A stretch of 64,000 bases of DNA from the NCBI RefSeq assembly GCF_044324875.1, contig NZ_CP172185.1; one strand, given 5' to 3'. Shown here piece after piece: positions 2,070 to 58,099 of this stretch. The first letter of the stretch is position 1, and each line of letters starts with the position of its first letter. This DNA is from Escherichia coli. GTDB taxonomy: Bacteria; Pseudomonadota; Gammaproteobacteria; Enterobacterales; Enterobacteriaceae. A program made the translations under genes and the position numbers. The notes below the pieces were generated by a model, which saw only the letters and a program-made list of their open reading frames with translations, did not search any database and had not been told where the DNA came from.

Positions 2070-3212
2070 ATGGATTTTTCTTTAACTGAAGAACAAGAAC
2101 TGCTGCTGGCCAGTATTCGCGAACTGATTACGACTAACTTTCCGGAAGAGTATTTCCGCACCTGCGATCAAAACGGGACATACCCGCGTGAATTTATGCG
2201 GGCACTGGCGGATAACGGTATTTCCATGCTTGGCGTGCCGGAAGAATTTGGTGGTATCCCTGCGGATTACGTCACCCAAATGCTGGCGCTGATGGAAGTG
2301 TCAAAATGCGGTGCCCCGGCATTTTTGATCACCAACGGTCAATGTATTCACAGTATGCGCCGTTTCGGTTCTGCAGAGCAGCTACGTAAAACGGCGGAAA
2401 GCACCCTGGAAACGGGTGATCCCGCCTATGCCCTGGCATTGACGGAACCAGGCGCAGGCTCAGATAACAACAGCGCCACCACCACTTACACGCGTAAAAA
2501 CGGCAAGGTTTACATCAACGGCCAGAAAACCTTTATTACCGGTGCGAAAGAGTACCCGTATATGCTGGTGCTGGCGCGCGATCCGCAACCGACAGATCCC
2601 AAAAAAGCCTTCACCCTGTGGTGGGTCGACTCCAGTAAGCCCGGCATTAAGATTAACCCGCTGCATAAAATCGGCTGGCATATGCTCAGCACCTGCGAAG
2701 TCTATCTCGACAACGTGGAAGTTGAAGAGAGCGACATGGTGGGCGAAGAAGGAATGGGTTTCCTCAATGTGATGTATAACTTTGAGATGGAGCGCCTGAT
2801 CAACGCCGCGCGCAGCACCGGCTTTGCCGAGTGTGCCTTTGAAGATGCCGCCCGCTATGCCAACCAGCGTATCGCTTTTGGTAAACCCATTGGTCATAAC
2901 CAGATGATCCAGGAAAAACTGGCGCTGATGGCGATTAAGATCGACAACATGCGCAACATGGTGTTGAAAGTGGCATGGCAAGCCGATCAGCATCAGTCAC
3001 TGCGCACCAGCGCGGCGCTGGCAAAACTGTACTGCGCACGTACCGCAATGGAAGTTATTGATGATGCGATTCAAATCATGGGCGGTCTGGGCTATACCGA
3101 TGAGGCGCGCGTCTCTCGCTTCTGGCGTGATGTCCGTTGTGAACGTATCGGCGGCGGTACAGACGAAATTATGATTTACGTAGCGGGTCGGCAGATCCTG
3201 AAAGATTATTAG
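2070..3212 (+). CDS. ydiO: acyl-CoA dehydrogenase family protein
   Basis: ORF starting MDFSLTEEQELL at ATG 2070 preceded by AGGAG; acyl-CoA dehydrogenase-like; synteny. Confidence 0.85.
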   Translation: MDFSLTEEQELLLASIRELITTNFPEEYFRTCDQNGTYPREFMRALADNGISMLGVPEEFGGIPADYVTQMLALMEVSKCGAPAFLITNGQCIHSMRRFGSAEQLRKTAESTLETGDPAYALALTEPGAGSDNNSATTTYTRKNGKVYINGQKTFITGAKEYPYMLVLARDPQPTDPKKAFTLWWVDSSKPGIKINPLHKIGWHMLSTCEVYLDNVEVEESDMVGEEGMGFLNVMYNFEMERLINAARSTGFAECAFEDAARYANQRIAFGKPIGHNQMIQEKLALMAIKIDNMRNMVLKVAWQADQHQSLRTSAALAKLYCARTAMEVIDDAIQIMGGLGYTDEARVSRFWRDVRCERIGGGTDEIMIYVAGRQILKDY

Positions 3213-3263: not shown

Positions 3264-4175
3264 TTATCCAACAAGACTTACCGGTTGAGGAAATTCAGAT
3301 AAGATTTCTTGTTCCGCAAAACAGTTTTTAAATTGCCTGCGGTAATCGCTGGGCGAACAGCCGACATGGCGCAAAAACAGTTTGGCAAAGTGATCGACAT
3401 TTTCATAACCCACACGCCAGGAGATCTCTGCCTGTGATAATTCAGTATTAGTGAGTGACCATTTCGCTTCCGTCATACGCCGTTGAATAACATAGTTAAT
3501 AGGGGAAATGCGATACTCTTTGGTAAATTCATGGCAAATATAACTGACGCTGGCACGAAACTTTTTCGATAACTGCTCTAAAGTGATTTTTTCGCGATAG
3601 TTATTATTCAGATAGAAAAGAATATCTTTTATCAGAACATCTTTTTTAATATATCCCTGCTCCGAACGATAAGCATTTTTAAAGTTTTCGTAGTAAAGAA
3701 TTGCTAACGTATAGGCAAAGGCGTCCCATAACGAAGATGTTTGGCTATTTTTACTTTGCGGCAAAATCACACTTAGCTCATTAAATAAGGTTTTAATGAC
3801 TTCTTTTCCCTGCCCTGCGGCAATTACCGGGCAAGAATGCGGTTGCAGTAGCTGATTTTCCTCAGCCCCCTGAAACTGAAAGCCGTACAGCGCACAGGTA
3901 CACGTCGTTGCCGGATCGTTAACGTCAGAGGCCACCGCATGCAGCCTGCCACGTTCTATCACCACAATGTCATCGGCGTGCGCGACATATAACGAAGAAT
4001 CGATGGTAAACCTTGCTACCCCTTTCTTGACGTAAATCAACTCAGTTTCATTGTCATGAACGTGATGTCCGGACTCCCATTTTGGATCATCGCTAAATGC
4101 AAAACGTGAAAGCCGTGGCGTTTTACCGGCGACAAACAGCGTTTCGCTGGCGTTATCAAAACAGTGTTGATACAT
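3264..4175 (-). CDS. ydiP: AraC-family transcriptional regulator
   Basis: 303-aa ORF with C-terminal AraC-type HTH; convergent with ydiO. Confidence 0.8.
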   Translation of the reverse strand: MYQHCFDNASETLFVAGKTPRLSRFAFSDDPKWESGHHVHDNETELIYVKKGVARFTIDSSLYVAHADDIVVIERGRLHAVASDVNDPATTCTCALYGFQFQGAEENQLLQPHSCPVIAAGQGKEVIKTLFNELSVILPQSKNSQTSSLWDAFAYTLAILYYENFKNAYRSEQGYIKKDVLIKDILFYLNNNYREKITLEQLSKKFRASVSYICHEFTKEYRISPINYVIQRRMTEAKWSLTNTELSQAEISWRVGYENVDHFAKLFLRHVGCSPSDYRRQFKNCFAEQEILSEFPQPVSLVG

Positions 4176-20025: not shown

Positions 20026-20086
20026 GGTATCCGTTCTGCTGAAGTGTCATGGCGTTGATTTTACGGTGACTCTTCGACAGTGAAAA

Positions 20087-20108
20087 GAAAAAAGGCCGCA
20101 GAGCGGCC
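20087..20108. repeat. attL core, direct repeat gaaaaaaggccgcagagcggcc
   Basis: Identical 22-mer at 57761-57782; seen in sequence. Confidence 0.7.
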
Positions 20109-20218: not shown

Positions 20219-20631
20219 TCGTCCCCTTCTTTCTCTTTGTTCTGTTGAACGCTAATTGCGACACACGTAGCAATCAAATCTTTACATTTCTCCATATCTT
20301 CTGTCTTGCGCAACTTGATGCTTGCCACCGATTGTGGATTATCCGCTGTGGCACAATGCATTGTTATTTCAATGTCGTTTCGATGAAAGAGTCCCATAAT
20401 AGCTTTTGCAACCTCCGTCCCTTTTTCCGCGATATCAAAGATCAAAGCAAGTTTATACAAAATATCACCAGAAAAACACTCAACCCTGCTAAGACCAACA
20501 TCACATAATGAAAAATATTGCTCAACGTCCCCCTGGAGTTCGGGAGCACACACAATATCTATTTTTCCGTACTGGCCTGAATAAAAGTCACTATTAACTG
20601 TTTTTTTCACAACATCCTCCTTCTTCAGCAA
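20215..20631 (-). CDS. hypothetical acidic protein at prophage left end (C-terminal region paralogous to ORF 56096-56311)
   Basis: 138-aa ORF overlapping 3' end of int; FHRNDIEITMHC...IKLRKTEDMEKCKDLI resembles FRRNDIEIELHF...VKLRHARDVQACQCLI. Confidence 0.55.
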   Translation of the reverse strand: MLKKEDVVKKTVNSDFYSGQYGKIDIVCAPELQGDVEQYFSLCDVGLSRVECFSGDILYKLALIFDIAEKGTEVAKAIMGLFHRNDIEITMHCATADNPQSVASIKLRKTEDMEKCKDLIATCVAISVQQNKEKEGDE

Positions 20632-21595
20632 TTGGATTAAACCTCACCGCATCCTGCAAATAATCCGGTGCAAGATGGGCATAAATCATCGTTGTCTGAA
20701 TCTTTGCGTGCCCCAGAATTTTCTGGAGCGTCAGAATATTGCCGCCGTTCATCATGAAATGACTGGCGAAAGTGTGGCGCAGCGCGTGAACGGCCTGCCC
20801 GTCAGGAATGGAAGGGGCAACCGCTTTTATCGAATCGCGCACCAGTGAATAATCCAGCGCCGGAAATACCAGCTTTCCGCCCCGTTTTTTAATTTTGTCA
20901 AACAGGCTTTCAGAAATTGGAACAGTCCGGTTTTTACTGTTTTTGGTTCTGGAAAATGTGATCCGGGAATGCAGAACGCGGCGCTGTTCAAGTGCCACCA
21001 CCTCACCCCATCGCGCCCCGGTAGATAAAAGAATTTCAGTAGCTAGCCGTTCGTCGGGATGCTCTACCAGAACGTCAAGCAGCTGGAGGCACTCCTGCCT
21101 GTTCAGATACCCCATTTCGCGCTCGCTGACCTTCATCCCTTTCAGTCCGCTAACAGGGTTATCATTCTGGAAGTGACCGGATGAGATGAGTGCGGAAAAC
21201 ATCGCGCTAAGCGCACCAACCTCGCGGTTTATGGTACTTGGCTGAATCCCCTCCTCCGCTCTTGCCACGCGTAATTCCGTTAACGTGGTGGCGTTGACGT
21301 TGTTAACACGCGGATCCCCCATCGCTTCACACACGCGCTGTAATTTGAGGCGTGTGTTCCACCCCGATTTCATCAGTTGCCCGTGAAACTTCCACCATAA
21401 TTCGATAAGTTCGGACAACGAACGGCGATCGGTCGGCGCACTGTTCCATGCGTTATTTTGGTGTTGAGCTAAAACCCAGCGTTCGAACTGGATAGCCTCC
21501 GACTTTGTTTTGAACTTTTTACGAATGCGTTTACCTTTGCGCCCATCAGGACGCATATCAACCATGTAGCCACCAGGGATTGATTTTATGCTCAT
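20594..21595 (-). CDS. int: tyrosine-type site-specific integrase (P2 Int-like)
   Basis: Translation MSIKSIPGGYMVDMRPDGRKGKR...; C-terminal ...HALRHTFASHFMMNGGNILTLQKILGH...YAHL catalytic region; start chosen at ATG 21595 inside longer ORF. Confidence 0.9.
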   Translation of the reverse strand: MSIKSIPGGYMVDMRPDGRKGKRIRKKFKTKSEAIQFERWVLAQHQNNAWNSAPTDRRSLSELIELWWKFHGQLMKSGWNTRLKLQRVCEAMGDPRVNNVNATTLTELRVARAEEGIQPSTINREVGALSAMFSALISSGHFQNDNPVSGLKGMKVSEREMGYLNRQECLQLLDVLVEHPDERLATEILLSTGARWGEVVALEQRRVLHSRITFSRTKNSKNRTVPISESLFDKIKKRGGKLVFPALDYSLVRDSIKAVAPSIPDGQAVHALRHTFASHFMMNGGNILTLQKILGHAKIQTTMIYAHLAPDYLQDAVRFNPIAEEGGCCEKNS

Positions 21596-21644
21596 TGGCA
21601 TACCCCCAGCGTCACAAGCCCACCGTGCCCCCAGCGTTCCATAA

Positions 21645-21953
21645 TCAGCCGTGCAGTGTGCCAGTCTTGCGGACTTTTTGAGAAGGTGATGTGCTTTCTG
21701 GCCCATCAGGGGAGAGAGTCGGGCTGATCTGCCCAGCAGCCTCGTTTGTTTTTCCCGTCATGAGCCAATTCATGTACTTAAAAAAACGAGGATGATTAAC
21801 AATCTTGACGAGAGCTTCGCCGCCGACATTCTCAATCCGACCTGTCTCATAACGGCGTAGAGTACCGATAGGTACATCAATCAGTTCACAAAACTCTTCA
21901 CGCGTTAACCCTTCCGACTCACGAATTACTCTGATTTTTTCACCAATAAACAT
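21645..21953 (-). CDS. immunity repressor (P2 C-like HTH protein)
   Basis: 102-aa HTH protein upstream of int and divergent from early operon; recalled resemblance to P2 C. Confidence 0.7.
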   Translation of the reverse strand: MFIGEKIRVIRESEGLTREEFCELIDVPIGTLRRYETGRIENVGGEALVKIVNHPRFFKYMNWLMTGKTNEAAGQISPTLSPDGPESTSPSQKVRKTGTLHG

Positions 21954-21992: not shown

Positions 21993-22010
21993 GTGTACTT
22001 ATAAGTACAC
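21993..22010. promoter_or_regulatory. perfect 18-bp palindrome GTGTACTTATAAGTACAC in the repressor/early divergent intergenic region (putative operator)
   Basis: Seen in sequence; flanked by a second inverted repeat gtattcttg...caagaatac. Confidence 0.5.
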
Positions 22011-31094: not shown

Positions 31095-31677
31095 ACCGGA
31101 AGCAAATTATTAAAGAGCCGTGCCCGCTGGCACACCTTAAATATAGGTTTTAACCCCTATATTGTCAAACAAAATCCCTATATCATGAAGTAAAAAAGCA
31201 CCTCCCGCGACCTCCCTTTCCGGTGCACGAAAGTGCACAAATTTGCACAATTTTTTTGAACGACTTTTTGCCCTTCCGGCCCGTGTGGCGTCTGGATCCG
31301 TCGGGGATCCGTGCGTGCACGAAAAAAGGCCTTTTTCTGCGCGCAGGTGACGGGGGAACAGCCCGCGTTTCAGGGGGTAAATAGCATTCCCTGAACGATG
31401 TTGCAGTGACACAACAGAATGGCTGTATTTCTCACGCTGAGCGTGAAAAAGACGTAAGGGCTTTTGATTTGATGGGGTGAAAGATAAGGCCGTCAAAATC
31501 GCACTGAGGCAGCGAGAATATGTCGTCAGAGTTGCGGGGTTGCGTAAGCATCCGCCCGGCGATGATGGCTACAGGGCTGGAGATGTTGTGAAATTATCTG
31601 AAGGAATAACCAGCTTGCAGGAGAACCCGGGCAAAGTCAGAATAGCGGCAGGCATCAACTCAAAAGAGGATAATGTC

Positions 31678-32181
31678 ATGAGCCACTTTAATGATTTATG
31701 CCAGATCAATCGTGAAGCTGAAGAAAAACGCGCTGAGGCAGCTCAAATTTTGCGGGATGAAGCGGCAAGGCTGATTGATTTCTATGAAGAATGGCTGGGG
31801 CTTCCATCCATGTACTGGGAAGACGATGATGGCGACCTGCACCGCTACGTGGAGACAGGCTTGCCATGTAAGACAGCGGCGGATTTTAGTCCTCTTTCAG
31901 TCCACAATATCGCATCTGCACCAGACAATATTTTCCGCATGGCCGTGCGAACCTGGGTTAAGTCATCTGACAGCAGCTACCCGGTAAGCGTGGTTATTGC
32001 ACTTGAATTATATTCAGTAGATGCGGAACGGGTGTCTCTGAGAGTCCGGGTGGAAGACGATATTTCTGTTCGCGTATTTATCAATAAACCCAGCGAAGAA
32101 GCCTGGGGCGATGTTGTTATGCACATGAAAAAGCACATCGCTAATCACCTGAAAAAGCGAGCGCCATCAGCACTTCGTTAA
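31678..32181 (+). CDS. hypothetical protein adjacent to portal gene
   Basis: 168-aa ORF from ATG 31678 with RBS AAGAGGA (in-frame GTG 31477 would give 234 aa); followed by hairpin. Confidence 0.5.
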   Translation: MSHFNDLCQINREAEEKRAEAAQILRDEAARLIDFYEEWLGLPSMYWEDDDGDLHRYVETGLPCKTAADFSPLSVHNIASAPDNIFRMAVRTWVKSSDSSYPVSVVIALELYSVDAERVSLRVRVEDDISVRVFINKPSEEAWGDVVMHMKKHIANHLKKRAPSALR

Positions 32182-32247: not shown

Positions 32248-33303
32248 TCAGGATATGGGCTGGGTGTCTAACAGTGCGTAAGGGTTAAAACGGATCACCT
32301 CTTCGCCCAGCCAGTCGTTGACGTGTTTCATTGCTTCCATGACGGGCATCAGTTCGTTAATGGCAAACACACGGGCTGCCTTCTCCACATCCCCGAATGA
32401 CCCCTTCTCACCCGGCATGGCCCCCATCAGCTGCGGCGGTACACGGTGCACGGACAGCACATCATCACGCGATGCAGCCTTGACGTTCATGAACTCATCC
32501 TTTGCGGTGATTTGCTGAAACGGCAAAATCTGTACGCCATCCTTACCACCTCCCGCCGCGTGGATGAGCAGATTTTTAAACGCCCCGCCACCACGCGCGC
32601 TTTGCAGTGTTTCCCGCAGTTTTTCCATGCTTTCACGGTCAACCTGCGCCGCACCGATGTAGACAATACAGCCCGCGTGTGAGCCGTTATCGTAGTAGAG
32701 CTTGCGGAAGATATCGGCGGAATGTGACAGGCTGGCAGACAGCAGGCCGCCCAGGTAATCCGGCATCCCGTAAATCTCCTGGTTGATATCAGGATTCATC
32801 AGGTGGCATATCGTCCCCTCACGAAAGCGGTACTCTTCCTGTCCTTCCTGTATATACCACCATGATTTCATATCGCTGCCACGTCGCATGTATTTCGCCA
32901 GCGCCCGGCGCAGGGCCAGCGGTTCGCCAAGCATGTTGCGCCGCAGCTCAAGACAGGCATTACCGAACACAAACCAGTCCATCGCCACCCCGGCGAACTC
33001 CTGGCGGGACAGCAGAGGATGTGGAATATAGCAGCCCAGCAGCACATTACGTTTGAAGCTGAGCGCCGACTGGTGCCAGGACGTCTGGCGGGCAGCCCGT
33101 GCCAGTCCGTACCAGTCAACGGGCGTTTCAAACCACCGCCCGTTGTCGGCGCAGTACATGCTGTCCAGCAGGTCGGCCCCTGACAGCCGGTAAGGTCCTT
33201 CAAACGTGAAGGCACTCAGTGTCGGGTCGCTTCGCAGGGAATCCGCAAGGCTGCCCTGCGCTGCGCGGGCGTTCGTACGTCGTTGTTTATTTTTTCTGCT
33301 CAT
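32248..33303 (-). CDS. portal protein (P2 gpQ-like)
   Basis: 351-aa ORF; position and orientation as P2 Q, overlapping terminase gene. Confidence 0.85.
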   Translation of the reverse strand: MSRKNKQRRTNARAAQGSLADSLRSDPTLSAFTFEGPYRLSGADLLDSMYCADNGRWFETPVDWYGLARAARQTSWHQSALSFKRNVLLGCYIPHPLLSRQEFAGVAMDWFVFGNACLELRRNMLGEPLALRRALAKYMRRGSDMKSWWYIQEGQEEYRFREGTICHLMNPDINQEIYGMPDYLGGLLSASLSHSADIFRKLYYDNGSHAGCIVYIGAAQVDRESMEKLRETLQSARGGGAFKNLLIHAAGGGKDGVQILPFQQITAKDEFMNVKAASRDDVLSVHRVPPQLMGAMPGEKGSFGDVEKAARVFAINELMPVMEAMKHVNDWLGEEVIRFNPYALLDTQPIS

Positions 33304-35054
33304 CAGAACTCCGTAACACTGAAGGGGGCGGCATCATGTTCACCGCCGACAGGTTCGTTGATAACGGCCAGCATGGTGGCCCATGCAAGATCGCCATGGC
33401 TTACGCCTCTTGCGCGATCTGTTTCGTAGGTGATAAATCCGGCCTGCGTTTTTGTTTTGCGTACCGCGTTAAAGGCGCTCACCAGTTCGCGCTCGCTGCG
33501 GTCGTACTCCCACCGCCCGGCGCGCATGAGCTGCAGCATCTTCAGAACCAGCGTGCGCTTTGATGACAGGGTGAAGGTGTAGGGAATGGCTGCCGGAAAA
33601 AAGCGCTTCACAATCTGATACACCGCATCCCCGTGACCGCCGGTTACGTCAATACCGATATGCTCAACGTTATAGCGAAAGGTGAACTCTTCAATCACCT
33701 TCGCCTGCGCCTCAAACTCCAGCCCCTGCACCCGCCGCGTCTCCACGGTGCGAAAACGCCCGCCCGGTACGGCTGGCGGCACCACCACGACAACCGCCCC
33801 GCTGTCACCGTTCCCGCTACTGCCGTTGGCGTCGTACCCAATCCACACAGGGCGGTTCCCCATCGGACGCGGTGCAAACGGCTTCCAGTCCGGCCACTCG
33901 TCGTATCCGTCAACACCGCAGCCAATCAGGATATTCAGGTTAAATGCCGATTCCCCTTCGCGAGCAAATTCACACATGTAGAGATTGCGGAACTCGTCTT
34001 CAGTGTTATTGCGCCGGATTTTGTCAATGTTGGTTAACGTCCATCCCTGACTGACCACATCTTCCAGCGTCACAATTTGCCGCCAGATATAGTCAGGACA
34101 GATAAGGCCGTTATGAAGCGCATTCCAGCTCACATCAAAATGCTGACGTTTATGAGTACGAAGCCCTTCATTCCAGTGATCGCCGTTCCAGTATGCATAC
34201 GCCTCATGTGTTTCACTTGATGGCGTGGAAAAATAGGTACACCGCAAACCATCCAGCGTTGCCATAGCAGCAGCCACCTTGCGCAGCTCTGCGAAACGCC
34301 CCGTCCAGAAAAACTCATCAAAATACAGATTCCCTGTGTACGCTTGCGCGGTGGCCGCAGAAGTGCCGAGAAAATGCAGCTCTGCACCGTTGGAGAGGAT
34401 GACTTTATCGCCCCCTTTCAGTTCCACATCAACTTCAGATGCAGCCTTCTGAATAATGCTTTTAAACTGGAGCGCCTGACGACGAGACGCAGACAAAAAA
34501 ATCTGGTTACGCTGGTAAGGTTGTGCCACATCGTCACGCAGCGCCATCAGCAGCGCTTCCTGCGCAAAATACCAGGTCGCCCCAATCTGGCGGGATTTCA
34601 GGATCATCCTGTCAGTAATTCCGGCACGCTCACAGGCACCGATAGCATCAAGCCATTTGCGCTGGTGTCCGGCCAGCCTGTCGGTAATTTTTTCCCGCAG
34701 CGCCGCGATCTGTTCCGGCGTGAAATGATTTTTGCGTTTTTTCGCCCGGCCTTTCTTTCCTGTTGCCGTCTCATCCGGCAGACCGTCATGCAGCTTTTTA
34801 AGCTGACGGGTCAGCAAATCAATTTCCTTAAAGTCCCCGCCTGTTTTATTCTGTTTTTCCGTGAGCTGAATGAGTCGCGCATCCATGGACTGCGTGACAC
34901 GCTGAACCGGGGGCGTCTCATCCCACTGGTCGCGTTTTTTCCACGAATGGATCGTGTTCTGGTTGATACCCATAAGGCGGGAAATTTCCGCAACAGGGTA
35001 ACCCTGCCAGTACAGCTGGCGTGCCCGCTGGCGAACAAATGTATCCTGAATCAT
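33303..35054 (-). CDS. terminase large (ATPase) subunit (P2 gpP-like)
   Basis: 583-aa ORF downstream of shared divergent late promoter region; P2 order. Confidence 0.85.
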   Translation of the reverse strand: MIQDTFVRQRARQLYWQGYPVAEISRLMGINQNTIHSWKKRDQWDETPPVQRVTQSMDARLIQLTEKQNKTGGDFKEIDLLTRQLKKLHDGLPDETATGKKGRAKKRKNHFTPEQIAALREKITDRLAGHQRKWLDAIGACERAGITDRMILKSRQIGATWYFAQEALLMALRDDVAQPYQRNQIFLSASRRQALQFKSIIQKAASEVDVELKGGDKVILSNGAELHFLGTSAATAQAYTGNLYFDEFFWTGRFAELRKVAAAMATLDGLRCTYFSTPSSETHEAYAYWNGDHWNEGLRTHKRQHFDVSWNALHNGLICPDYIWRQIVTLEDVVSQGWTLTNIDKIRRNNTEDEFRNLYMCEFAREGESAFNLNILIGCGVDGYDEWPDWKPFAPRPMGNRPVWIGYDANGSSGNGDSGAVVVVVPPAVPGGRFRTVETRRVQGLEFEAQAKVIEEFTFRYNVEHIGIDVTGGHGDAVYQIVKRFFPAAIPYTFTLSSKRTLVLKMLQLMRAGRWEYDRSERELVSAFNAVRKTKTQAGFITYETDRARGVSHGDLAWATMLAVINEPVGGEHDAAPFSVTEF

Positions 35055-35116
35055 TTCTCCCCCTCATGTGATTCAGGCAGTTTACTCACCCCTTACAGGC
35101 CTCCTGCCATGCCCGG

Positions 35117-35140
35117 TGTTGTCGGCATTCGCTTACAACA
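35117..35140. promoter_or_regulatory. dyad TGTTGT-N12-ACAACA in the divergent terminase/scaffold late promoter region (Ogr/Delta-type activator site)
   Basis: Dyad seen in sequence; matches known TGT-N12-ACA architecture of P2 late promoters. Confidence 0.45.
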
Positions 35141-35208
35141 AACGCACTTTGTCTGTCCCTGCCCCGTTTTGCCATCATGAGACAAACGATCATCACGAGG
35201 GCCCGACA

Positions 35209-36045
35209 ATGCCTGAACAGAAAAAAACATCCCGTAAAACATTCCGCGTGGCCGTTTCCGGTCCCACCGCAGACGGTCGCGAAATCAGCGCCGCAGATTT
35301 GCGCGCGGCGGCCAGTAACTTCAACCCTGAGATTTACGGCGCACGCGTGAACGTGGAGCACTGGCTTTCACCGGTTCCGTCCAGTGAATTTTCCGCCATG
35401 GGTGATGTGACGGCACTGAGCACAGAAGAAATCACCGAAGGTCCGCTGGTCGGTCGTACTGCGCTGTATGCGAAAATCGAACCCACCGACCGCATGAAAA
35501 ATCTGGTCTCCCGGGGTAAGAAAATTTACTCCAGTATTGAGCTGGCACGAAATTTCACCCCTACGGGCACCCCGTATCTTATTGGCCTTGCCATGACAGA
35601 CACCCCGGCAAGCATCGGCACGGAGCGTCTTCAGTTCGCCCTGCAGCAGCGCCGTTCGGTCATGACCTTCAATAATCAGCAGACGGAAGCACCGATGTTC
35701 TCTGACGCCATTGAGGCTGAAGTGATCGAACTGACGGAGCGCCGCAGCGAGGAAGGTGCGCAGTGGTTTAACCGCGTGATGAACATGATTGGGCGAGGAC
35801 GCAGGGCTGACGACACCCGGTTCTCCCGCATTCATGACGCCGTTGAGGGGATAGCCTCATCGCATGCCGACCTTCTCGACCGCTTCAGTGCACTGGAATC
35901 GCGCCATCAGGCAGACAGACAGAAAGTCGCCACCCTGTCCACTGAGCTGGCAGAGCTGAAAAACAGACTGCGCGGACTGGACGCTGATCAGCAAAGTCGT
36001 TTTACGGCAACCGGCGGGCAGTCCAGACAACTGGCTGACTACTGA
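35209..36045 (+). CDS. capsid scaffolding protein (P2 gpO-like)
   Basis: Start MPEQKKTSRKTFRVAVSGPTADGREISA... at ATG 35209; P2 order. Confidence 0.8.
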   Translation: MPEQKKTSRKTFRVAVSGPTADGREISAADLRAAASNFNPEIYGARVNVEHWLSPVPSSEFSAMGDVTALSTEEITEGPLVGRTALYAKIEPTDRMKNLVSRGKKIYSSIELARNFTPTGTPYLIGLAMTDTPASIGTERLQFALQQRRSVMTFNNQQTEAPMFSDAIEAEVIELTERRSEEGAQWFNRVMNMIGRGRRADDTRFSRIHDAVEGIASSHADLLDRFSALESRHQADRQKVATLSTELAELKNRLRGLDADQQSRFTATGGQSRQLADY

Positions 36046-40618: not shown

Positions 40619-41252
40619 CAGGGCTTTCACTGAACTGGACCGCACAATGCGGACCATCAGCAGCGGACTTTCCCCGCAGGCACTGAGCCGCATTGCCGGA
40701 CAGCTTGCCAGAGAGGTTCGCCGCAGCCAGCAACAGCGTATGCGCGCACAGAAAGCGCCGGACGGTACACAGTGGGAGCCGCGCAGACGGCGCATCAGCC
40801 GCCTGCAGCAGCGTATCCGCTTCATCCGGAACAACGAAACCCGCACGCTGAAAAACTGGCATCACGACGTGAGCAGACACGGACGCACCATCACCGGCTG
40901 GGATGAGGATAAGGGAGGCCTGCGCACCTTCTACCGGGAGGATATCACCCGTTATATTGAAATCAGCACCCGCCGCATCAGCCGCAACGCCACAAAGACC
41001 GTACCGATGTTTGCGAAGCTGCGCACGGCACGCTACCTGAAAGCCAGAGGCGATGCGGGCGGTCTGACCGTCGGTTATGACGGCGTGGCGGCACGCATTG
41101 CCCGCGTTCACCAGTTCGGGGAGCGCGACCGGGTGGCCGCAGGGGTGTATACGGATTATCCGGCCCGTGAACTTCTTGGAATAACACCGGCAGATGAACG
41201 GCTGATTGCCGACAGGCTACTGAACCGCATTGCGGGAGAAATATCATCATGA
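40611..41252 (+). CDS. virion morphogenesis/tail completion protein (gpS position)
   Basis: 213-aa ORF overlapping neighbours; positional. Confidence 0.6.
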   Translation: MTDRAFTELDRTMRTISSGLSPQALSRIAGQLAREVRRSQQQRMRAQKAPDGTQWEPRRRRISRLQQRIRFIRNNETRTLKNWHHDVSRHGRTITGWDEDKGGLRTFYREDITRYIEISTRRISRNATKTVPMFAKLRTARYLKARGDAGGLTVGYDGVAARIARVHQFGERDRVAAGVYTDYPARELLGITPADERLIADRLLNRIAGEISS

Positions 41253-45353: not shown

Positions 45354-45360
45354 ACAGCCT

Positions 45361-45386
45361 CCGGCCTGAGACTGCACTCAGGCCGG
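45361..45386. terminator. GC-rich hairpin ccggcctgag-actgca-ctcaggccgg between convergent G and U
   Basis: Seen in sequence. Confidence 0.4.
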
Positions 45387-45394
45387 AAATTCTG

Positions 45395-50477: not shown

Positions 50478-50805
50478 TAAGCACCTCCAAGCGTCGCAAA
50501 TGCAGGACCAAAGAATTCATCAGTAAACGTCTGGTAAAGTTCCATATCCTCAAGCGGCGGAACGGGCGTGTACTTGTAGCGGATACGCACGCGTCCCTGA
50601 CGAAGTTCCGTGGTGCTGTTATCCACCACGTCATACCAGCACTCCGCACCAACGAGACGTCCTGACGTAACCAGCGCATCCAGTTTTGCGCGAATTGCGC
50701 TTAACACGTCTTTCACATTAGCAGGGGTCAGCGGGGCATCAATCGTTTCAAACTGCGCTTCCGCAACAGAATCAGCCAGCACCTGATGCAAAATGGCATC
50801 TGAAT
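50477..50805 (-). pseudogene. tail sheath (FI) C-terminal fragment, separated from N-terminal part by an IS
   Basis: Frame ...AIDSDAILHQVLADSVAEAQF...RIRYKYTPVPPLEDMELYQTFTDEFFGPAFATLGGA ends where tube gene starts; 5' boundary approximate. Confidence 0.6.
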
Positions 50806-50988
50806 CGATCGCAGTTTGGCATTCGAATCGATCATGATTTGGCATCCATCTCCGATCACAGTTTGGCATCACAATCGATCACGATTTGGCATGCTTCCGA
50901 TCATTGATTGGCATCCTGCCAGTCACTCCGGGAATTAACTCTTTTCACCACAGTCTCCATTGCCGTGTTTAAACCAGTGGAGACGTCA

Positions 50989-52554
50989 ATGTCCAGAAAG
51001 AGAAAATCCAGGAGCACTATGGAAACCTGTTTTAAGATCCTTCAGCTCAAGTTCGACAAGAAGCTGACTAACCGTTGTATCGGACTGACGTTACACATCA
51101 GCGCCTCAACCGTTTTTGAGGTTCTTGCCCGCTTCAAAGCCTCTTCTCTGTCATGGCCATTACCTGCTGATATATCCCATGACACGCTGGAGAAACTCAT
51201 TTTTCCGCCCAAAGACACCTTTGCATCAGAGCTTGTAATGCCTGACATGTTGTACTTCGATACGGAAATGAGAAAACCAGGTGTGACGCGGCAACTGTTG
51301 TGGATGGAATACAAGGCACAGGCGGGTAACAAAGCGATGGGATACTCGCACTTCTGCCGTTGCTACCGGGAGTGGAAAAAAACGCGACGTCTCTCCATGC
51401 GCCAGGAGCATCGTGCCGGCGAAAAGCTTTTTATCGACTTCTGTGGTCCTACGGTTCCTGTTATTAATCCGGACACCGGTGAGATACGCCGCGTGGCAAT
51501 CTTCGTGGCCGTAATGGGGGCGTCCAACTATACCTACGTTGAAGCGTGCGAAGGTCAGGACATGATGTCATGGTTAAATGCCCACAGCCGTTGCCTGACC
51601 TTCCTGGGCGGCGTACCGAAGCTGCTCATCCCCGATAACCTCAGAAGCGCAGTGAAAAAGGCCGATCGATATGAGCCTGTCATCAACGACAGTTATCAGG
51701 CACTGGCTGAGCACTATGGCACGGTTATCATCCCGGCCCGACCACGCAAACCTAAAGATAAACCAAAAGCAGAAAACGGCGTCCTCATCGTTGAACGATG
51801 GCTTCTTGCCCGCATCCGTAATGAAACCTTCCACACGCTCAGGGCGCTGAATGCGCGCCTTAGGGAGTTACTGACAGACATGAATAACCGGCCAATGAAG
51901 GGGTACGGCAATCAAACCCGTGCAGAACGCTTCCGCATACTGGATGCGCCAGCACTCTCTCCGCTGCCTCTGGCACCTTATGAATACACGGAATACAAAG
52001 CTGTGAAGGTTGGCCCTGACTACCACGTTGAATATGCCCGTCACTGGTACTCCGTTCCACACGAACTGGTCGGTCAGCGTCTGTCACTGAAGGCGGGGCA
52101 GTCGGTGGTACAGCTCTGGCACAAGGGGCAGTGTGTGGCGCAACATCCGCGCAGCACACATGAATATAAACACACAACCAATCCGCTTCACATGCCAGAG
52201 CGCCACCGGCAGCACGGGACATGGACACCGGAACGCCTGATCGAGCAGGGAAAACGTACGGGCCCGTCCACAGGCCGGGTGGTTGAATCCATGCTGAAGG
52301 CAAAACCCCATCCGGAACTGGCTTATCGTGCAGTTCTGGGGCTGCTGGCACTTCAGAAAAAATACGGCCCGGAACGGCTGGAAAAGGCCTGTTACGTTGC
52401 CCTGCACTATAACGCCCCTGACAGACGCTTTATCGACAATCTGCTGCGTCACCATCGGGAGAACCTGGAGCTTCCATTATCCCGCCAGGGCGAACAACAT
52501 CCGGCATATGCTTCAGAGCATGAAAACCTGCGTGGTCCGGGCTACTACCACTGA
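50989..52554 (+). CDS. istA: IS21-family transposase IstA
   Basis: N-terminal HTH, DDE-type central region; start taken at MSRKRKSRS (ATG 50989). Confidence 0.85.
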   Translation: MSRKRKSRSTMETCFKILQLKFDKKLTNRCIGLTLHISASTVFEVLARFKASSLSWPLPADISHDTLEKLIFPPKDTFASELVMPDMLYFDTEMRKPGVTRQLLWMEYKAQAGNKAMGYSHFCRCYREWKKTRRLSMRQEHRAGEKLFIDFCGPTVPVINPDTGEIRRVAIFVAVMGASNYTYVEACEGQDMMSWLNAHSRCLTFLGGVPKLLIPDNLRSAVKKADRYEPVINDSYQALAEHYGTVIIPARPRKPKDKPKAENGVLIVERWLLARIRNETFHTLRALNARLRELLTDMNNRPMKGYGNQTRAERFRILDAPALSPLPLAPYEYTEYKAVKVGPDYHVEYARHWYSVPHELVGQRLSLKAGQSVVQLWHKGQCVAQHPRSTHEYKHTTNPLHMPERHRQHGTWTPERLIEQGKRTGPSTGRVVESMLKAKPHPELAYRAVLGLLALQKKYGPERLEKACYVALHYNAPDRRFIDNLLRHHRENLELPLSRQGEQHPAYASEHENLRGPGYYH

Positions 52555-52570
52555 CAGAAGGAACAACAGT

Positions 52571-53326
52571 ATGAGTGATAACCTGTTAAACAAACTGACC
52601 CAACTGAAACTCCCGGCGATGGCCGGGAGCCTGATACGGCAGCGGGAAACGCCTCAGACCTACGACGAACTGTCGTTCGAGGAAAGGCTGACGCTGCTGG
52701 TTGATGACGAGCTTCTGAGCAGGGAAAACAGCCGTGTGGCACGGTTGAGAAAAAATGCCGGCCTGAAATACCAGGCAACACCGGAAGGGCTGCGCTATCC
52801 GGCCTCAAGAGGTCTGCGGGCTGAACAGATGAGAGAACTGCTGAACGGCCACTACATAACCCACAGGAAAAACCTGCTGATAACCGGTCCGACAGGATGT
52901 GGCAAGAGCTGGATAGCCAATGCGCTGGGCGAACAGGCATGTCGACAGAAACACAGCGTCCGGTACTGTAGAACCGGGCGATTACTGGAACAACTGGCTC
53001 AGGGACGTGTTGATGGCAGCTGGCTGAAATATCTGAAACAGTTGCAAAAAATACAGGTTCTAATCCTGGACGATCTGGGGCTGGAACAGTTAAGTAACGC
53101 CCAGTGTAATGACCTTCTGGAGCTCATAGAGGATCGTTACGGACAAAGCAGCACGATAGTGGTAAGCCAGTTCCCGGTAGATAAATGGCATGGTCTGATG
53201 GAGAACCCAACAACAGCAGATGCCATCCTGGACAGACTGGTACATAACTCACACCGAGTGGTCCTTCAGGGAGAGTCACTGAGGAAAAATCCCCCGGTAG
53301 TGGAAAGCAGCGAAAAAACGCGTTAA
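52571..53326 (+). CDS. istB: IS21-family helper ATPase IstB
   Basis: Start MSDNLLNKLTQLKLP; Walker A GPTGCGKS, Walker B ILDDLG. Confidence 0.9.
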   Translation: MSDNLLNKLTQLKLPAMAGSLIRQRETPQTYDELSFEERLTLLVDDELLSRENSRVARLRKNAGLKYQATPEGLRYPASRGLRAEQMRELLNGHYITHRKNLLITGPTGCGKSWIANALGEQACRQKHSVRYCRTGRLLEQLAQGRVDGSWLKYLKQLQKIQVLILDDLGLEQLSNAQCNDLLELIEDRYGQSSTIVVSQFPVDKWHGLMENPTTADAILDRLVHNSHRVVLQGESLRKNPPVVESSEKTR

Positions 53327-53409
53327 AAAGCGGTAGAAAAAGTTAAGTTCCCGGTTGATCGAATGGATGCGAATCGCTGATCGGACTTCGATGCCAATCC
53401 GTGATCGAA

Positions 53410-54406
53410 TAGAGCGGAATACGCACACCTGAGCGGTTCGCGTGTACACCTCAAAGATATACGCCTTCGTTTCCGGCGTACGGTTGCCCCAGAAGCGGAA
53501 ACCGTTACGGCGAATGATGGTGGTGATTTCCTTGTTGTTGAGATTGTTGGCATCGCTGTCTTCGGACTGAAGGGACCAGAACACCGGGCTGGAAATACCC
53601 AGCACATTTCTTACCGGCACGTTGGACAGCGATTTATGCCAGCCCTGTTCGTGGTCAATACGTGCACGTAAACCGCAGGCGTACGCCGCAGCCGGGAAGA
53701 CCTCATTAGCGCCGGATTTCGGGTTATGGGCGATGAAGTCAGGCCAGAGCAGCATAAGTTCGCGCTCGTTAAATCTGGCGCGGTAGCTGATTGCATCAGC
53801 GGGCTTCTTGCAGTTGTGACAGCCCGCGTAGACAAATGCGCGAAGTTTTTCTGCAATTACACACAGGGATTTTGTGACAGCTTCAGTATCCAGTCCGGGC
53901 GCTGCGATGATGCGCGGACGGTAACCGATGGCATCATCCTGTTCAGCTATCAGAAGTGCATACATACCGGTATAATTACCGTCGCCATCCGTGCCACCAA
54001 TGACATACTGGTCCTGCGTTTTGTGTGGGTATACAGGATGTGCATCTTCAGACTCATCAATACCAAAAAATGCCCTGTCTTCAGGATCCAGATGACCGAA
54101 TGATGTAACTCCTGTATCCGGGGCGCCCTGAGAACTGGCATCAGGAACGCGCACCACAATCACCTTCGTGCTCACCTGGTCGGCGACAGCCTTAAGCGAT
54201 TTGTAAAGCGTCCCCTTTGTGCCGGCCTTACCCAGCACATCACTGACGCGGGTCAGCAGTGTGGGTTTGTTCAGCGGGAACAGAGTTTCATCCGCGTCAT
54301 CTGCCGTAGCCACAATACCAATAACACTGGAATCCACATCATTAATGGCGGTGGCAAGGCCGGTACTTTCCCTTACGCGCGCACCATGAAAGCGTGTTTC
54401 ACTCAT
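53410..54406 (-). pseudogene. tail sheath (FI) N-terminal fragment interrupted by IS
   Basis: Start MSETRFHGARV at ATG 54406; frame runs into IS right end where translation becomes IS-derived. Confidence 0.65.
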
Positions 54407-54490
54407 ATGTTTCACCCTTGTCTGGCTGGTTGATTTTGCGTAATCATTACCCACGATGCCGCCGGTATCATCTCCTGCCCGTTCTCACCG

Positions 54491-54506
54491 TTCGCTTACA
54501 ACAAAC
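54491..54506. promoter_or_regulatory. late-promoter-like motif TTCGCTTACAACAAAC upstream of D (same 16-mer as at 35128-35143)
   Basis: Exact 16-mer shared with the scaffold-gene promoter region. Confidence 0.3.
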
Positions 54507-54566
54507 AGCCGTTCACCACGGTCGCACGCCGTGAAAACATGACGGGACACACCACGAGGGCAGACC

Positions 54567-55658
54567 ATGACCGACCTGTTAATCAACGTTCCGTCACCGG
54601 ATATCGAAATCACCATCAACAACAACAGACTCCGTAACGTCACGGAGCGGCTCATGACGCTGTCACTGACCGACAACCGGGGCTTTGAGGCGGACCGCGT
54701 CACCCTGACCATTGACGACGCGGACGGGCAGCTTCAGCTGCCACAGCGCGGCGCACGCCTGAACGTGATGATTGGCTGGCGCGGGGAGGCGCTGGTTAAC
54801 AAGGGTGTCTACATCGTTGATGAAGTGACGTGGGAAGGCCCGCCGGACAAACTGACCATCACCGCCAGCAGCGCCGATTTTCGCGAAGAGTTCAACGTGA
54901 AGCGTGAAGTCTCCTGGCACGACGTGACGGTAAAACAGGTTGTGTCAGCCATCGCGCACCGCTACGGCCTGAAAGCACAGATAAGCGATATCCTCATGGA
55001 TATCGAAATTGACCACGCAGACCAGACCGAAGAGAGCGATATATCCTTCCTGACCCGCATGGCTGAAATGCTGGGTGCGATTGCCACCGTAAAAAACGGC
55101 AGCCTGTTATTCATTCTGCCGGGTGGCGGAACCGGGCCGGACGGAAAAGCCCTGCCTTCGTTCGCCATTACCCGCAGCAGCGGCGACAGTCACCGCTTTC
55201 GCATTGCTGACCGTGATGCGTATACGGGGGTCCGGGCGCACTGGCTCGATCTGAAGTTCGGGCAAAAGAAAAAAGTGAACGTGAAGCGACGCAGGGAAGC
55301 CGGGAAACAGAAACAGGAGAAGAGCAGCAGCCGGGAAGGTGATTACATGGAGGGCGCGGAAGGGAACGTCTACGTTCTGCGCAGGACTTACCAGAATGAA
55401 GAAACCGCACGACGTGCAGCAGCTGCAAAGTGGCAGGAACTACAGCGGGGCGCGGCATCATTCTCCATCACGCTGGCGCGCGGTCGTGCCGACCTGTACC
55501 CTGAAATGCACGGCAGGGTAACAGGTTTTAAAAGCGAGGTGGACAATCAGGACTGGATTATTGCCAGGGTGGAGCACAGCATAGATGAAAGCGGCTTCAC
55601 CACACAACTGGAGCTGGAAGCGAAAATCCCCGAATGGATAGCAGATTCAGGCGGATAA
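54567..55658 (+). CDS. late control/tail protein D
   Basis: 363-aa ORF directly upstream of ogr-like gene, as in P2. Confidence 0.85.
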   Translation: MTDLLINVPSPDIEITINNNRLRNVTERLMTLSLTDNRGFEADRVTLTIDDADGQLQLPQRGARLNVMIGWRGEALVNKGVYIVDEVTWEGPPDKLTITASSADFREEFNVKREVSWHDVTVKQVVSAIAHRYGLKAQISDILMDIEIDHADQTEESDISFLTRMAEMLGAIATVKNGSLLFILPGGGTGPDGKALPSFAITRSSGDSHRFRIADRDAYTGVRAHWLDLKFGQKKKVNVKRRREAGKQKQEKSSSREGDYMEGAEGNVYVLRRTYQNEETARRAAAAKWQELQRGAASFSITLARGRADLYPEMHGRVTGFKSEVDNQDWIIARVEHSIDESGFTTQLELEAKIPEWIADSGG

Positions 55659-55701: not shown

Positions 55702-55953
55702 ATGTTCCGTTGTCCCCTGTGCGGTGCATCCGCACGTATCCGCACCAGTCGCAATGAAAATGATTCAGGCACAGTTCGCCTGAAGTACTACCAGTGCAAT
55801 AACCTCGAATGCGGGATCGGCTTTACCACACTGGAGGGTTTTAACAAATTCACATCAAAACGCGCCCCGTCGCCGCAGGGTACAGAGCGGATACCGTGGG
55901 AAGATTTTCCGGGATCTCACAGGGGGAATGCTCAGATGAATCTTGATATTTAA
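55702..55953 (+). CDS. ogr: Ogr/Delta-family zinc-finger late transcription activator
   Basis: MFRCPLCG...YYQCNNLECG Cys4 arrangement; position after D. Confidence 0.8.
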   Translation: MFRCPLCGASARIRTSRNENDSGTVRLKYYQCNNLECGIGFTTLEGFNKFTSKRAPSPQGTERIPWEDFPGSHRGNAQMNLDI

Positions 55954-55965
55954 GAACAATAATCA

Positions 55966-56097
55966 GGTTGAGAGGACATCATAAGGCAAGTAGATTAACG
56001 GCAGATACTTTCCCGCAACCACGGGCAAGTATTTAATTATCCATGATGAAATATGACCTAAATTGTTTTTTGCCCGCCGGAAAGCGGGCATTTTTTT
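55966..56097 (+). repeat. repeat unit 1 (GGTTGAG...GTAGATTAAC...hairpin+T-run), candidate small RNA
   Basis: Shares 5' GGTTGAG, GTAGATTAAC core, TTATCCATGAT and terminal gcccgccNNNNNNgggc+T7 with units 2/3. Confidence 0.3.
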
Positions 56098-56311
56098 ATT
56101 CTTTTGTGGTTATGGGGTCATCAGGAACCACGTGCAGATTATATTTTTGTTTTTTTGGCGTTCCTCCGGCAGCAACGAGTTCATCAATAAGACACTGACA
56201 CGCCTGAACATCCCGGGCATGTCTTAGTTTCACCTTTATTGATTTAACCTTATCCTCACCGGAGGAGAAATGCAGTTCAATCTCAATATCGTTTCTTCGG
56301 AACAATCTCAT
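56096..56311 (-). CDS. hypothetical small protein, paralogous to C-terminal half of ORF 20215-20631
   Basis: 71-aa ORF with RBS AGGGGGG; similarity noted by eye. Confidence 0.5.
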   Translation of the reverse strand: MRLFRRNDIEIELHFSSGEDKVKSIKVKLRHARDVQACQCLIDELVAAGGTPKKQKYNLHVVPDDPITTKE

Positions 56312-56580
56312 ACGCCCCCCTGAATATATCAGAAATGCTAGTATCGAAAAATGAGAAAACAGTTAGACAGGAGAAACATATTAACACAAATCATTTATAC
56401 CTATAGATGAAATTATAATTTCATTCATGAATATGATAGATAACTATATTGTGAACAAAATGAAAAATGGCTAAATTAAAAATGGGCATGGAGGAATGCC
56501 TCGTAATCAGTAATACATGATCCATACTTCCTTGTTTTGCCCGCCGGAAAGCGGGCATTTTTTTGGCGGTTACCATCGCC

Positions 56581-56783: not shown

Positions 56784-56968
56784 CACCTTCATGACACATA
56801 TTAAGCAGACCTGATTTTTCCATGAAAAATTCATGGTTGAGACAAAAGCACAAAAACAGTAGATTAACCACGGGTGCCTGCCACCTGACAACAGGAAGGG
56901 GTGTCCATTATCCATGATATACAAACGAAAAGTCTTGTCTTTTGCCCGCCGTTGCGCGGGCTTTTTTT
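56784..56968 (+). repeat. repeat unit 3 ending in intrinsic terminator, candidate small RNA
   Basis: As unit 2; terminator stem 56943-56960 + T8 overlaps hicB stop. Confidence 0.35.
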
Positions 56969-57366
56969 TATCCAAGAACCCTGTCTGCAGCAACACGCGC
57001 CAGAAATCCAGAGCGGCTACCGTATTCAGGATGAGACTCAACGAACTGATCAATGCGACGAATAAGCAGAGATGGCAGGGTAACATTGATTTTTTCCGAT
57101 TTCCCCATCAGGCGGGACACATCCACCTCAACGAGCGCCCACACTGCATCACTGTATTCAGGATCTGATTGCCATTCATCAAGATTTGTAGCGACAGGGA
57201 TAGACTCACCAGATTCAACCAGTAATTCTACGTGTGCCTCAATGGCTTCACGGGCACTGTCTACCGCATCCTGAAAACTATCACCGCCAGAAAAACAGCC
57301 GGGCAGATCTGGGACGCGAACACCAAAAGATGAATCCCCCCGGTCAATAGCGATTGCATATAACAT
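56968..57366 (-). CDS. hicB: HicB-family antitoxin
   Basis: MLYAIAIDRGDSSFGVRVPDLPGCFSGGDSFQDAVDSAREAIEAH... typical HicB N-domain; C-terminal RHH-like tail. Confidence 0.8.
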   Translation of the reverse strand: MLYAIAIDRGDSSFGVRVPDLPGCFSGGDSFQDAVDSAREAIEAHVELLVESGESIPVATNLDEWQSDPEYSDAVWALVEVDVSRLMGKSEKINVTLPSLLIRRIDQFVESHPEYGSRSGFLARVAADRVLG

Positions 57367-57722: not shown

Positions 57723-57760
57723 GAATTAATTTTTATTTATAAATCAATGCATTATACAAA

Positions 57761-57782
57761 GAAAAAAGGCCGCAGAGCGGCC
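57761..57782. repeat. attR core gaaaaaaggccgcagagcggcc (part of ihfA terminator hairpin)
   Basis: Identical to 20087-20108; followed by T-run, i.e. intact terminator after ihfA. Confidence 0.7.
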
Positions 57783-57799: not shown

Positions 57800-58099
57800 T
57801 TACTCGTCTTTGGGCGAAGCGTTTTCGACCCGGCTTTTTAACTTCTGCCCGGGTCTGAAGGTCACCACGCGCCGTGCTGTAATGGGAATATCCTCGCCCG
57901 TTTTCGGGTTACGTCCCGGGCGTTGATTCTTATCACGCAGATCGAAGTTACCAAAACCAGAGAGTTTCACCTGTTCGCCGTTTTCCAGAGCGCGACGGAT
58001 CTCTTCGAAAAACAGTTCAACCAGTTCTTTGGCATCCCGCTTGCTAAGCCCAAGCTTATCAAACAGATATTCTGACATTTCAGCTTTTGTAAGCGCCAT
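57800..58099 (-). CDS. ihfA: integration host factor alpha subunit
   Basis: 99-aa [57 protein letters not shown]... Confidence 0.95.

Follow-up and report, generated by a model that had tools for sequence, protein, structure and literature searches.

Two predicted Ogr-binding dyads, each between divergent late genes, in a P88-like prophage of Escherichia coli

Where late genes of a P2-like prophage run away from each other on either side of an intergenic region, does one activator site serve both promoters, and which protein would bind it? The question arises at an inverted repeat between the terminase (P) and scaffold (O) genes of an Escherichia coli prophage (host pheS 99.6% identical) in a stretch of 64,000 nucleotides, hereafter called the window. 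Ogr of phage P2 is the model for such activators: its targets are inverted repeats with centres near −55, where it activates transcription by contacting the alpha subunit of RNA polymerase (PMC3152322). The P2 consensus is TGT-N12-ACA (PMC3931495), and a P2-like phage of Ralstonia carries TGTTGT-N13-ACAACA at four late promoters (PMC5694545). Our reading, to which we assign a probability of about 0.85 on the basis of sequence comparison, is that the window holds two dyads that would be binding sites of the prophage's own Ogr, in ordinary P2/186-type late promoters, each site being shared by a divergent pair. Four parts of this reading are predictions by homology: where transcription starts, the binding of Ogr, its contact with alpha, and activity in both directions.

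The prophage is P88-like and about 37.7 kb long; its nearest sequenced phages are the P88-like Peduoviridae (Xuanwuvirus), at about 76% identity. A 25-nt exact direct repeat, AAAGAAAAAAGGCCGCAGAGCGGCC, lies at 20084-20108, adjoining the integrase gene (20594-21706, minus strand), and at 57758-57782, just downstream of ihfA (57800-58099). The two copies probably represent attL and attR, with the 37.7-kb prophage integrated at the ihfA terminator. Of 5,426 complete genomes, about 750 carry P88-like relatives and 26 carry this particular lineage. Inside the right prophage end, between ogr and attR, is a gene for a HicB-like antitoxin (56968-57366; Pfam, 8.8e-46), which suggests a toxin-antitoxin accessory module.

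The coordinates of the late genes, the two sites, and the predicted promoter elements are given in Table 1. The gene called ogr in an earlier note, which had been made from the letters of the window alone, is borne out by its Pfam Ogr_Delta match (4.9e-14), by 42% identity to P2 Ogr (BLASTP; E = 7e-15), and by its place directly downstream of D (55658 is the last position of D and 55702 the first of ogr). Its product has the cysteines Cys4, Cys7, Cys32, and Cys37, i.e., CX2C-X24-CX4C, with 24 residues between the cysteine pairs versus 22 in P2 Ogr. Given this 24-residue gap and the 42% identity, the recognition sequence of this Ogr is a predicted one. An 83-codon homologue, 72% identical to the Ogr of the window by tblastn, is encoded at positions 34476-34724 of P88 (NC_026014.1). 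The RefSeq record of P88 has nothing annotated between D and a hok-like gene, so that the late activator of the genus type phage is unannotated. Downstream of ogr in the window, the terminator sequence TTTTGCCCGCCGGAAAGCGGGCATTTTTTT (56068-56097) has an exact duplicate 467 bp further on (56535-56564). The two copies bracket a small open reading frame (ORF) on the minus strand (56096-56311) with no family match, and this region may be an inserted accessory cassette.

Table 1. Late genes, predicted activator sites, and predicted promoter elements in the window
Feature	Position	Strand	Details
Portal Q	32248-33303	-	Pfam Phage_portal; with terminase, forms the leftward pP operon
Terminase large subunit (P2 gpP homologue)	33303-35054	-	Pfam Terminase_6N, Terminase_6C, Terminase_5
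pP (leftward terminase/portal), predicted -10 TAAACT	35079-35084	-	44.5 bp from dyad centre; predicted start ~35072; TAAnCT block in relatives
Activator (Ogr) binding site 1, predicted	35117-35143	.	Perfect dyad TGTTGT-N12-ACAACA plus conserved AAC tail; centre 35128.5
pO (rightward scaffold), predicted extended -10 TGcCATCAT	35170-35178	+	Hexamer CATCAT 44.5 bp from dyad centre; predicted start ~35185
Capsid scaffold gpO	35209-36045	+	Pfam Phage_GPO 1.4e-87; first gene of the rightward late operon, which runs to about 45353
Terminator-like hairpin	45360-45387		End of the rightward O operon
Tail sheath, N-terminal three quarters	53426-54406	-	tblastn with P88 sheath protein; Pfam Phage_sheath_1, Phage_sheath_1C
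Sheath promoter (pF equivalent), predicted -10 AATGAT	54443-54448	-	43.5 bp from dyad centre; predicted start ~54436; xAxxAT block in relatives
Activator (Ogr) binding site 2, predicted	54480-54506	.	Imperfect dyad CGTTCT-N12-ACAACA plus AAC; centre 54491.5
D-ogr promoter, predicted extended -10 TGaAAACAT	54532-54540	+	Hexamer AAACAT 43.5 bp from dyad centre; predicted start ~54547; TG-n-hexamer block conserved
Tail gene D (gpD)	54567-55658	+	Pfam Phage_GPD 4.3e-17
ogr, Ogr/Delta zinc finger	55702-55953	+	Pfam Ogr_Delta (PF04606), 52.4 bits (cutoff 26.3), 4.9e-14
Terminator-like hairpin with T run	56071-56098	+	Downstream of ogr

The sheath gene is split by an IS21-family element (50787-53425), beyond which the C-terminal part of sheath lies at 50480-50785. 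The element comprises istA (50908-52554) and istB (to 53326), has multiple terminal repeats of roughly 23 bp at 50804-50915 and 53366-53413, and matches ISSso4-type copies carried by E. coli and Escherichia fergusonii plasmids with 100% identity. A relative that is 99.6% identical (L083) lacks the element; in it, the two flanks meet in a 7-bp overlap that is probably the target duplication. Because the insertion splits sheath, the prophage would be unable to make tails, and one of its four late promoters would drive a broken gene; to judge from its sequence, it is probably tail-defective.

Two dyads and their uniqueness in the window

The first dyad consists of TGTTGT (35117-35122), a 12-nt spacer (35123-35134), and ACAACA (35135-35140), exactly where the earlier note had placed it, between a leftward ATG at 35054 and a rightward ATG at 35209. 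Allowing at most one mismatch, TGTTGT-N12-ACAACA has this single match in the 64-kb window (0.23 expected), and with two to three mismatches allowed, the counts in the window are at chance level. The same note had reported that a 16-mer overlapping the dyad, TTCGCTTACAACAAAC, recurs between sheath and D; we confirmed exact copies at 35128-35143 and 54491-54506, and no further copy with two or fewer mismatches exists in the window (0.06 expected). The window has five pairs of exact repeats of at least 16 nt, compared with about 0.5 in shuffled sequences. Taken alone, the 16-mer repeat is only mildly unusual and is weak evidence; position and conservation carry the weight.

The second copy of the 16-mer had been described as a half-site before D, a description that has to be revised. 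CGTTCT stands upstream of it at the correct spacing, and the whole (CGTTCT-N12-ACAACA, 54480-54503) is an imperfect full dyad with two mismatches relative to the perfect one.

To rank the two dyads against the rest of the window, we used a weight matrix of 27 positions built from 27 distinct sites of relatives only, with the window and its near-identical twins left out. The site at 54480-54506 scored 29.0 bits and that at 35117-35143 scored 21.4 bits. The third-best match in the 64 kb reached 10.8 bits, and the maximum over 20 shuffles was 13.5 bits. Both sites fall inside the intergenic regions of the two divergent late gene pairs, a total of 315 bp of 64,000, with one match per region. The prophage thus has two sites, exactly those two picked by the relatives-only matrix.

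A search for the minimal motif TGT-N12-ACA, which had been suggested as a check, turned out to be uninformative: the window has eight matches versus 14.9 expected, and the motif is nonspecific. The other matches were rejected as sites since they are absent from the 20 best matrix matches and therefore score below 2.9 bits. One of them, at 51296, is inside the IS and is likewise absent from those 20. Another match (21994) falls in GTGTACTTATAAGTACAC, a perfect 18-bp palindrome at 21993-22010 that is flanked by the first rightward early ORF and, on the minus strand, by a helix-turn-helix (HTH) repressor gene (21645-21953). The palindrome is probably an immunity operator; its fit to TGT-N12-ACA is coincidental, and it too is absent from the 20 best matrix matches. 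A TGTTG-N8-CAACA palindrome, TGTTGCAGTGACACAACA, lies at 31399-31416, about 60 bp upstream of an unassigned 234-codon ORF (31477-32181) that converges on the portal gene. As an Ogr site, TGTTGCAGTGACACAACA was rejected, as it fits the minimal TGT-N12-ACA but fails the family matrix. We also rejected a separate baseplate (pV-type) promoter: the S and V genes overlap at 41249-41252 without an intergenic region, and the matrix scan found no pV-type site at the S/V junction.

Half-sites, spacers, and the shared 16-mer

We compared the sites across 80 gpO-relative and 80 gpD-relative loci. In about 150 related P88-like (Xuanwuvirus) loci, the half-sites are kept at the same positions, while the 12-bp spacer varies freely. 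Every P88-like sequence of the gpO set has TGTTCT-N12-ACAACA (TGCTCT in L080), with the dyad centre 80 to 82 bp upstream of the O start, and two distant relatives (L081 and L082) keep GGGTCT-N12-ACAACA at P/O. The other conserved blocks of the P/O region, besides the right half-site, are TAAnCT on the terminase side and GCCATCATG, the extended −10 sequence (TG-n-CATCAT) predicted for pO, which is invariant even in these two distant relatives.

At the sheath/D site, xGTTCT-N12-ACAACAAAA or a close variant is present in 54 of the 56 distinct non-twin upstream sequences of the gpD set, with at least eight different spacers among its loci and −10-like blocks conserved on both flanks. Variation within the set includes GGGTGT/GGGTCT as the left half in L086 and L125; L086, with a right half ending in ACAACAGAA, and L134, with ACAACC, are the two exceptions. 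In L084 (93% gpD identity), the sheath/D dyad is perfect, TGTTGT-CTCCTGACAGCG-ACAACA, within TGTTGT-CTCCTGACAGCG-ACAACAAAA; the P/O site on the same contig (L004) is identical to that of the window, and another relative (L003) has one mismatch to the window in the P/O spacer. Overall, relatives show degeneracy in the left half-site (TGTTCT, CGTTCT, or GGGTCT). The right half with its AAA tail is nearly invariant (ACAACAAA(A/C)) and always faces the rightward gene.

Judged by this comparison, selection acts on the half-sites but not on the spacer. Since half-sites are kept while spacers vary, the exact identity of the two 16-mers is best read as incidental and peculiar to this lineage, not as the conserved feature; a short conversion tract or chance may account for it. 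One could go further and regard the repeat as copying between the regions (a short gene-conversion tract) or chance, with no function in the repeat itself. The spacer part TTCGCTT is indeed unconserved (CTCCTGACAGCG in L084 and one mismatch at P/O in L003), there are other exact 16-mer repeats in the window, and downstream of the sites the two regions resemble each other slightly more than shuffles do (z = 2.96). Yet this account explains just seven spacer bases and is compatible with Ogr-binding dyads instead of replacing them, and copying within one genome cannot explain why nine bases, ACAACAAAC, and the opposing GTTxT are kept at fixed positions in about 150 loci. We consider it very improbable as an explanation of the sites.

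The sequences downstream of the two sites have further features in common. The ribosome-binding regions of O (35193-35201) and D (54553-54561) share a 9-mer, CACGAGGGC, 7 and 5 nt before the respective ATG, and CATGA at the −10 region is also shared. The modest downstream similarity in the window (z = 2.96) is due to this shared 9-mer and the shared CATGA; in P88, the corresponding value is 1.28. Wholesale copying of the pO region to pD is weakly supported by these two values, and we rejected it.

The dyads could also encode an RNA or DNA hairpin (a terminator, an attenuator, or a processing site) instead of a protein-binding site, given that TGTTGT and ACAACA can pair in a 6-bp stem. We regard this as extremely improbable. 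Folding is no better than that of shuffled sequences (z = −0.70, −0.14, +1.32, and −1.87), and for the plus strand of site 2 no fold forms at all. The dyad is not followed by a T run, a terminator scan finds nothing at either site, and the left-arm G is changed to C in relatives without a compensating change in the right arm. Moreover, each site is upstream of the predicted transcripts, not inside them. The Ogr-type activation of late promoters that the earlier note had put forward, by comparison, gains support from the relatives: the predicted sites lie in the sole two intergenic regions where late genes diverge, no other stretch of the window scores high with the matrix, and their half-sites are conserved.

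Promoter geometry and a proposed mechanism

We measured spacing at the two sites from the centre of the dyad to the position where the nearest −10-like hexamer begins. The sites are equidistant from the hexamers on their two sides, at 44.5 and 44.5 bp for site 1 and 43.5 and 43.5 bp for site 2. The predicted starts of each pair are 113 and 111 bp apart, respectively, which by this hexamer-based prediction puts each dyad at about −55.5 to −56.5 relative to the two promoters of its pair. The hexamers themselves are weak matches to the −10 element (four of six positions for TAAACT, CATCAT, and AATGAT and three of six for AAACAT), and the extended −10 TG is conserved at the rightward promoters, not at the leftward ones. 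A simple scan for sigma-70 −35/−10 promoters found none in 34950-35300 or in the sheath-D intergenic region, which fits activator-dependent promoters.

Do the dyads serve both directions? They might activate the rightward promoters only (the O operon and D-ogr), with the terminase and sheath promoters using some other, unrecognised element. The nearly invariant right half, ACAACAAA(A/C), which faces the rightward gene while the left half drifts, and the extended −10 TG that is conserved at the rightward promoters alone both point that way. Against this, the matrix finds no second site in either intergenic region or in the rest of the prophage, and the leftward regions lack sigma-70 promoters yet have conserved −10-like hexamers at 43.5 to 44.5 bp. 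In P2 and 186, moreover, a single site is annotated for both divergent promoters, and both P2 starts are mapped; the strong half (TGTTGT) faces P in these two phages, so the orientation of the strong half does not set the promoter served. We therefore think it unlikely that only the rightward promoters are activated, but the asymmetry between a degenerate left half and an invariant right half could mean that the site is tuned mainly for them.

The suggestion of the earlier note that a single dyad may serve both divergent promoters agrees, by analogy, with the curated records of P2 and 186, which state the same, and with PP' and PO' of Smp131 (PMC3931495). That the D-side dyad is also common to the leftward sheath promoter is supported by the sequence comparison.

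In the mechanism that we propose for the shared dyads, Ogr encoded at 55702-55953 would bind both of them, each lying about 55 to 56 bp upstream of two predicted starts that face apart (pP/pO and sheath/D-ogr). With a −10-like hexamer but without a −35 element, these promoters would be used poorly by the host sigma-70 RNA polymerase until Ogr has been produced. Ogr at about −55 would, by analogy with P2, recruit the polymerase via the C-terminal domain of the alpha subunit and, because the site is a dyad placed equidistantly, one bound activator could serve polymerase on either side. The two sites would in this way switch on four late units. Two of them, P-Q and sheath through U, run leftward; the other two run rightward, namely O through G, over about 10 kb to the hairpin at 45360-45387, and D-ogr, to the terminator at 56071-56098. 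The last of these would put ogr under its own control late in infection.

Relation to P2, 186, and P88-like phages

The closest mapped counterpart is P2 (NC_001895), which like the window has divergent terminase and scaffold genes, one dyad between them, and ogr after D. Its mapped starts for P (3016, minus strand) and O (3127, plus strand) are 111 bp apart, and a single feature at 3057-3087 is annotated as "activator binding site; pO, pP promoters." There, TGTTGT-N12-CCATCC (3060-3083) is centred at 3071.5, the exact midpoint, at −55.5 for both starts, and the −10 hexamers (TAGCCT for pP) are 43.5 bp from the centre, with no −35 element. The P2 dyad is partial, with TGTTGT facing P, whereas the dyad of the window is perfect and its strong half, ACAACA, faces O. 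Phage 186 (NC_001317) also has one site between divergent terminase and scaffold genes, annotated at 3798-3817 as "B protein; activation of pV and p12 promoters," with the sequence TGTTGT-N12-CCAGTC (3797-3820). The weaker half is reduced to CCA in both P2 and 186. Unlike the window, 186 has its tail genes in P2 order with a unidirectional pJ, and its activator gene B is controlled by CI repression of pB.

P88 and other Xuanwuvirus members share the gene order of the window, including an inverted sheath-to-U tail module that faces D-ogr; in P88, sheath-tube-E-T-U are on the strand opposite D. P88 has TGTTCT-N12-ACAACAAAA at P/O and CGTTCT-N12-ACAACAAAA at sheath/D in the same geometry as the window, with distances of 42.5 bp for pP, 44.5 bp for pO, 43.5 bp for sheath (GATGAT), and 43.5 bp for D-ogr (TGcGACCAT). 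At about 76% DNA identity, its spacers differ from those of the window, and it has no 16-mer repeat. Extended TGTTGT...ACAACA dyads also lie upstream of late operons in the Ralstonia phages phiRSY1 and phiRSA1, which differ from the window in their 13-nt spacer, and in Smp131 of Stenotrophomonas, where PP' and PO' are listed at identical coordinates, one on each strand (PMC3931495); these phages have distant hosts, and their assignments were made by sequence only. The paper describing P88 (PMC5285337) makes no mention of promoters or ogr, a search of the Xuanwuvirus literature returned nothing on promoters, and in the literature searched we found no description of a bidirectional sheath/D-ogr pair.

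For P2 and 186, existing annotation already has the P/O site serving both promoters, and there is no new mechanism here. By analogy with these phages, the window would show a mild variation, a second bidirectional pair (sheath leftward and D-ogr rightward) that comes from the inverted tail module typical of P88-like phages. Because this module is inverted, the site of the unidirectional pF of P2 now lies between divergent sheath and D-ogr. A second bidirectional pair is the expected consequence of a symmetric activator site. As a tentative and rather doubtful extension, the sheath-to-U inversion itself may have turned the unidirectional pF into a second bidirectional Ogr-dependent pair, with D-ogr as a short late positive-feedback unit acting on the activator. 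If the inversion pivoted on the symmetric site, any Ogr dyad would be inherently two-faced, and a new late promoter would need only a −10 hexamer 43 to 44 bp away. The 16-mer identity could in that case be a trace of sequence exchange between the sites.

For the annotation of a common E. coli prophage group, these results outline a late regulon in which two predicted activator sites would control four transcription units, and they confirm an ogr gene that is missing from the P88 reference record. The principle of one dyad for two promoters, as annotated in P2 and 186, would thereby extend to a second locus, sheath/D-ogr.
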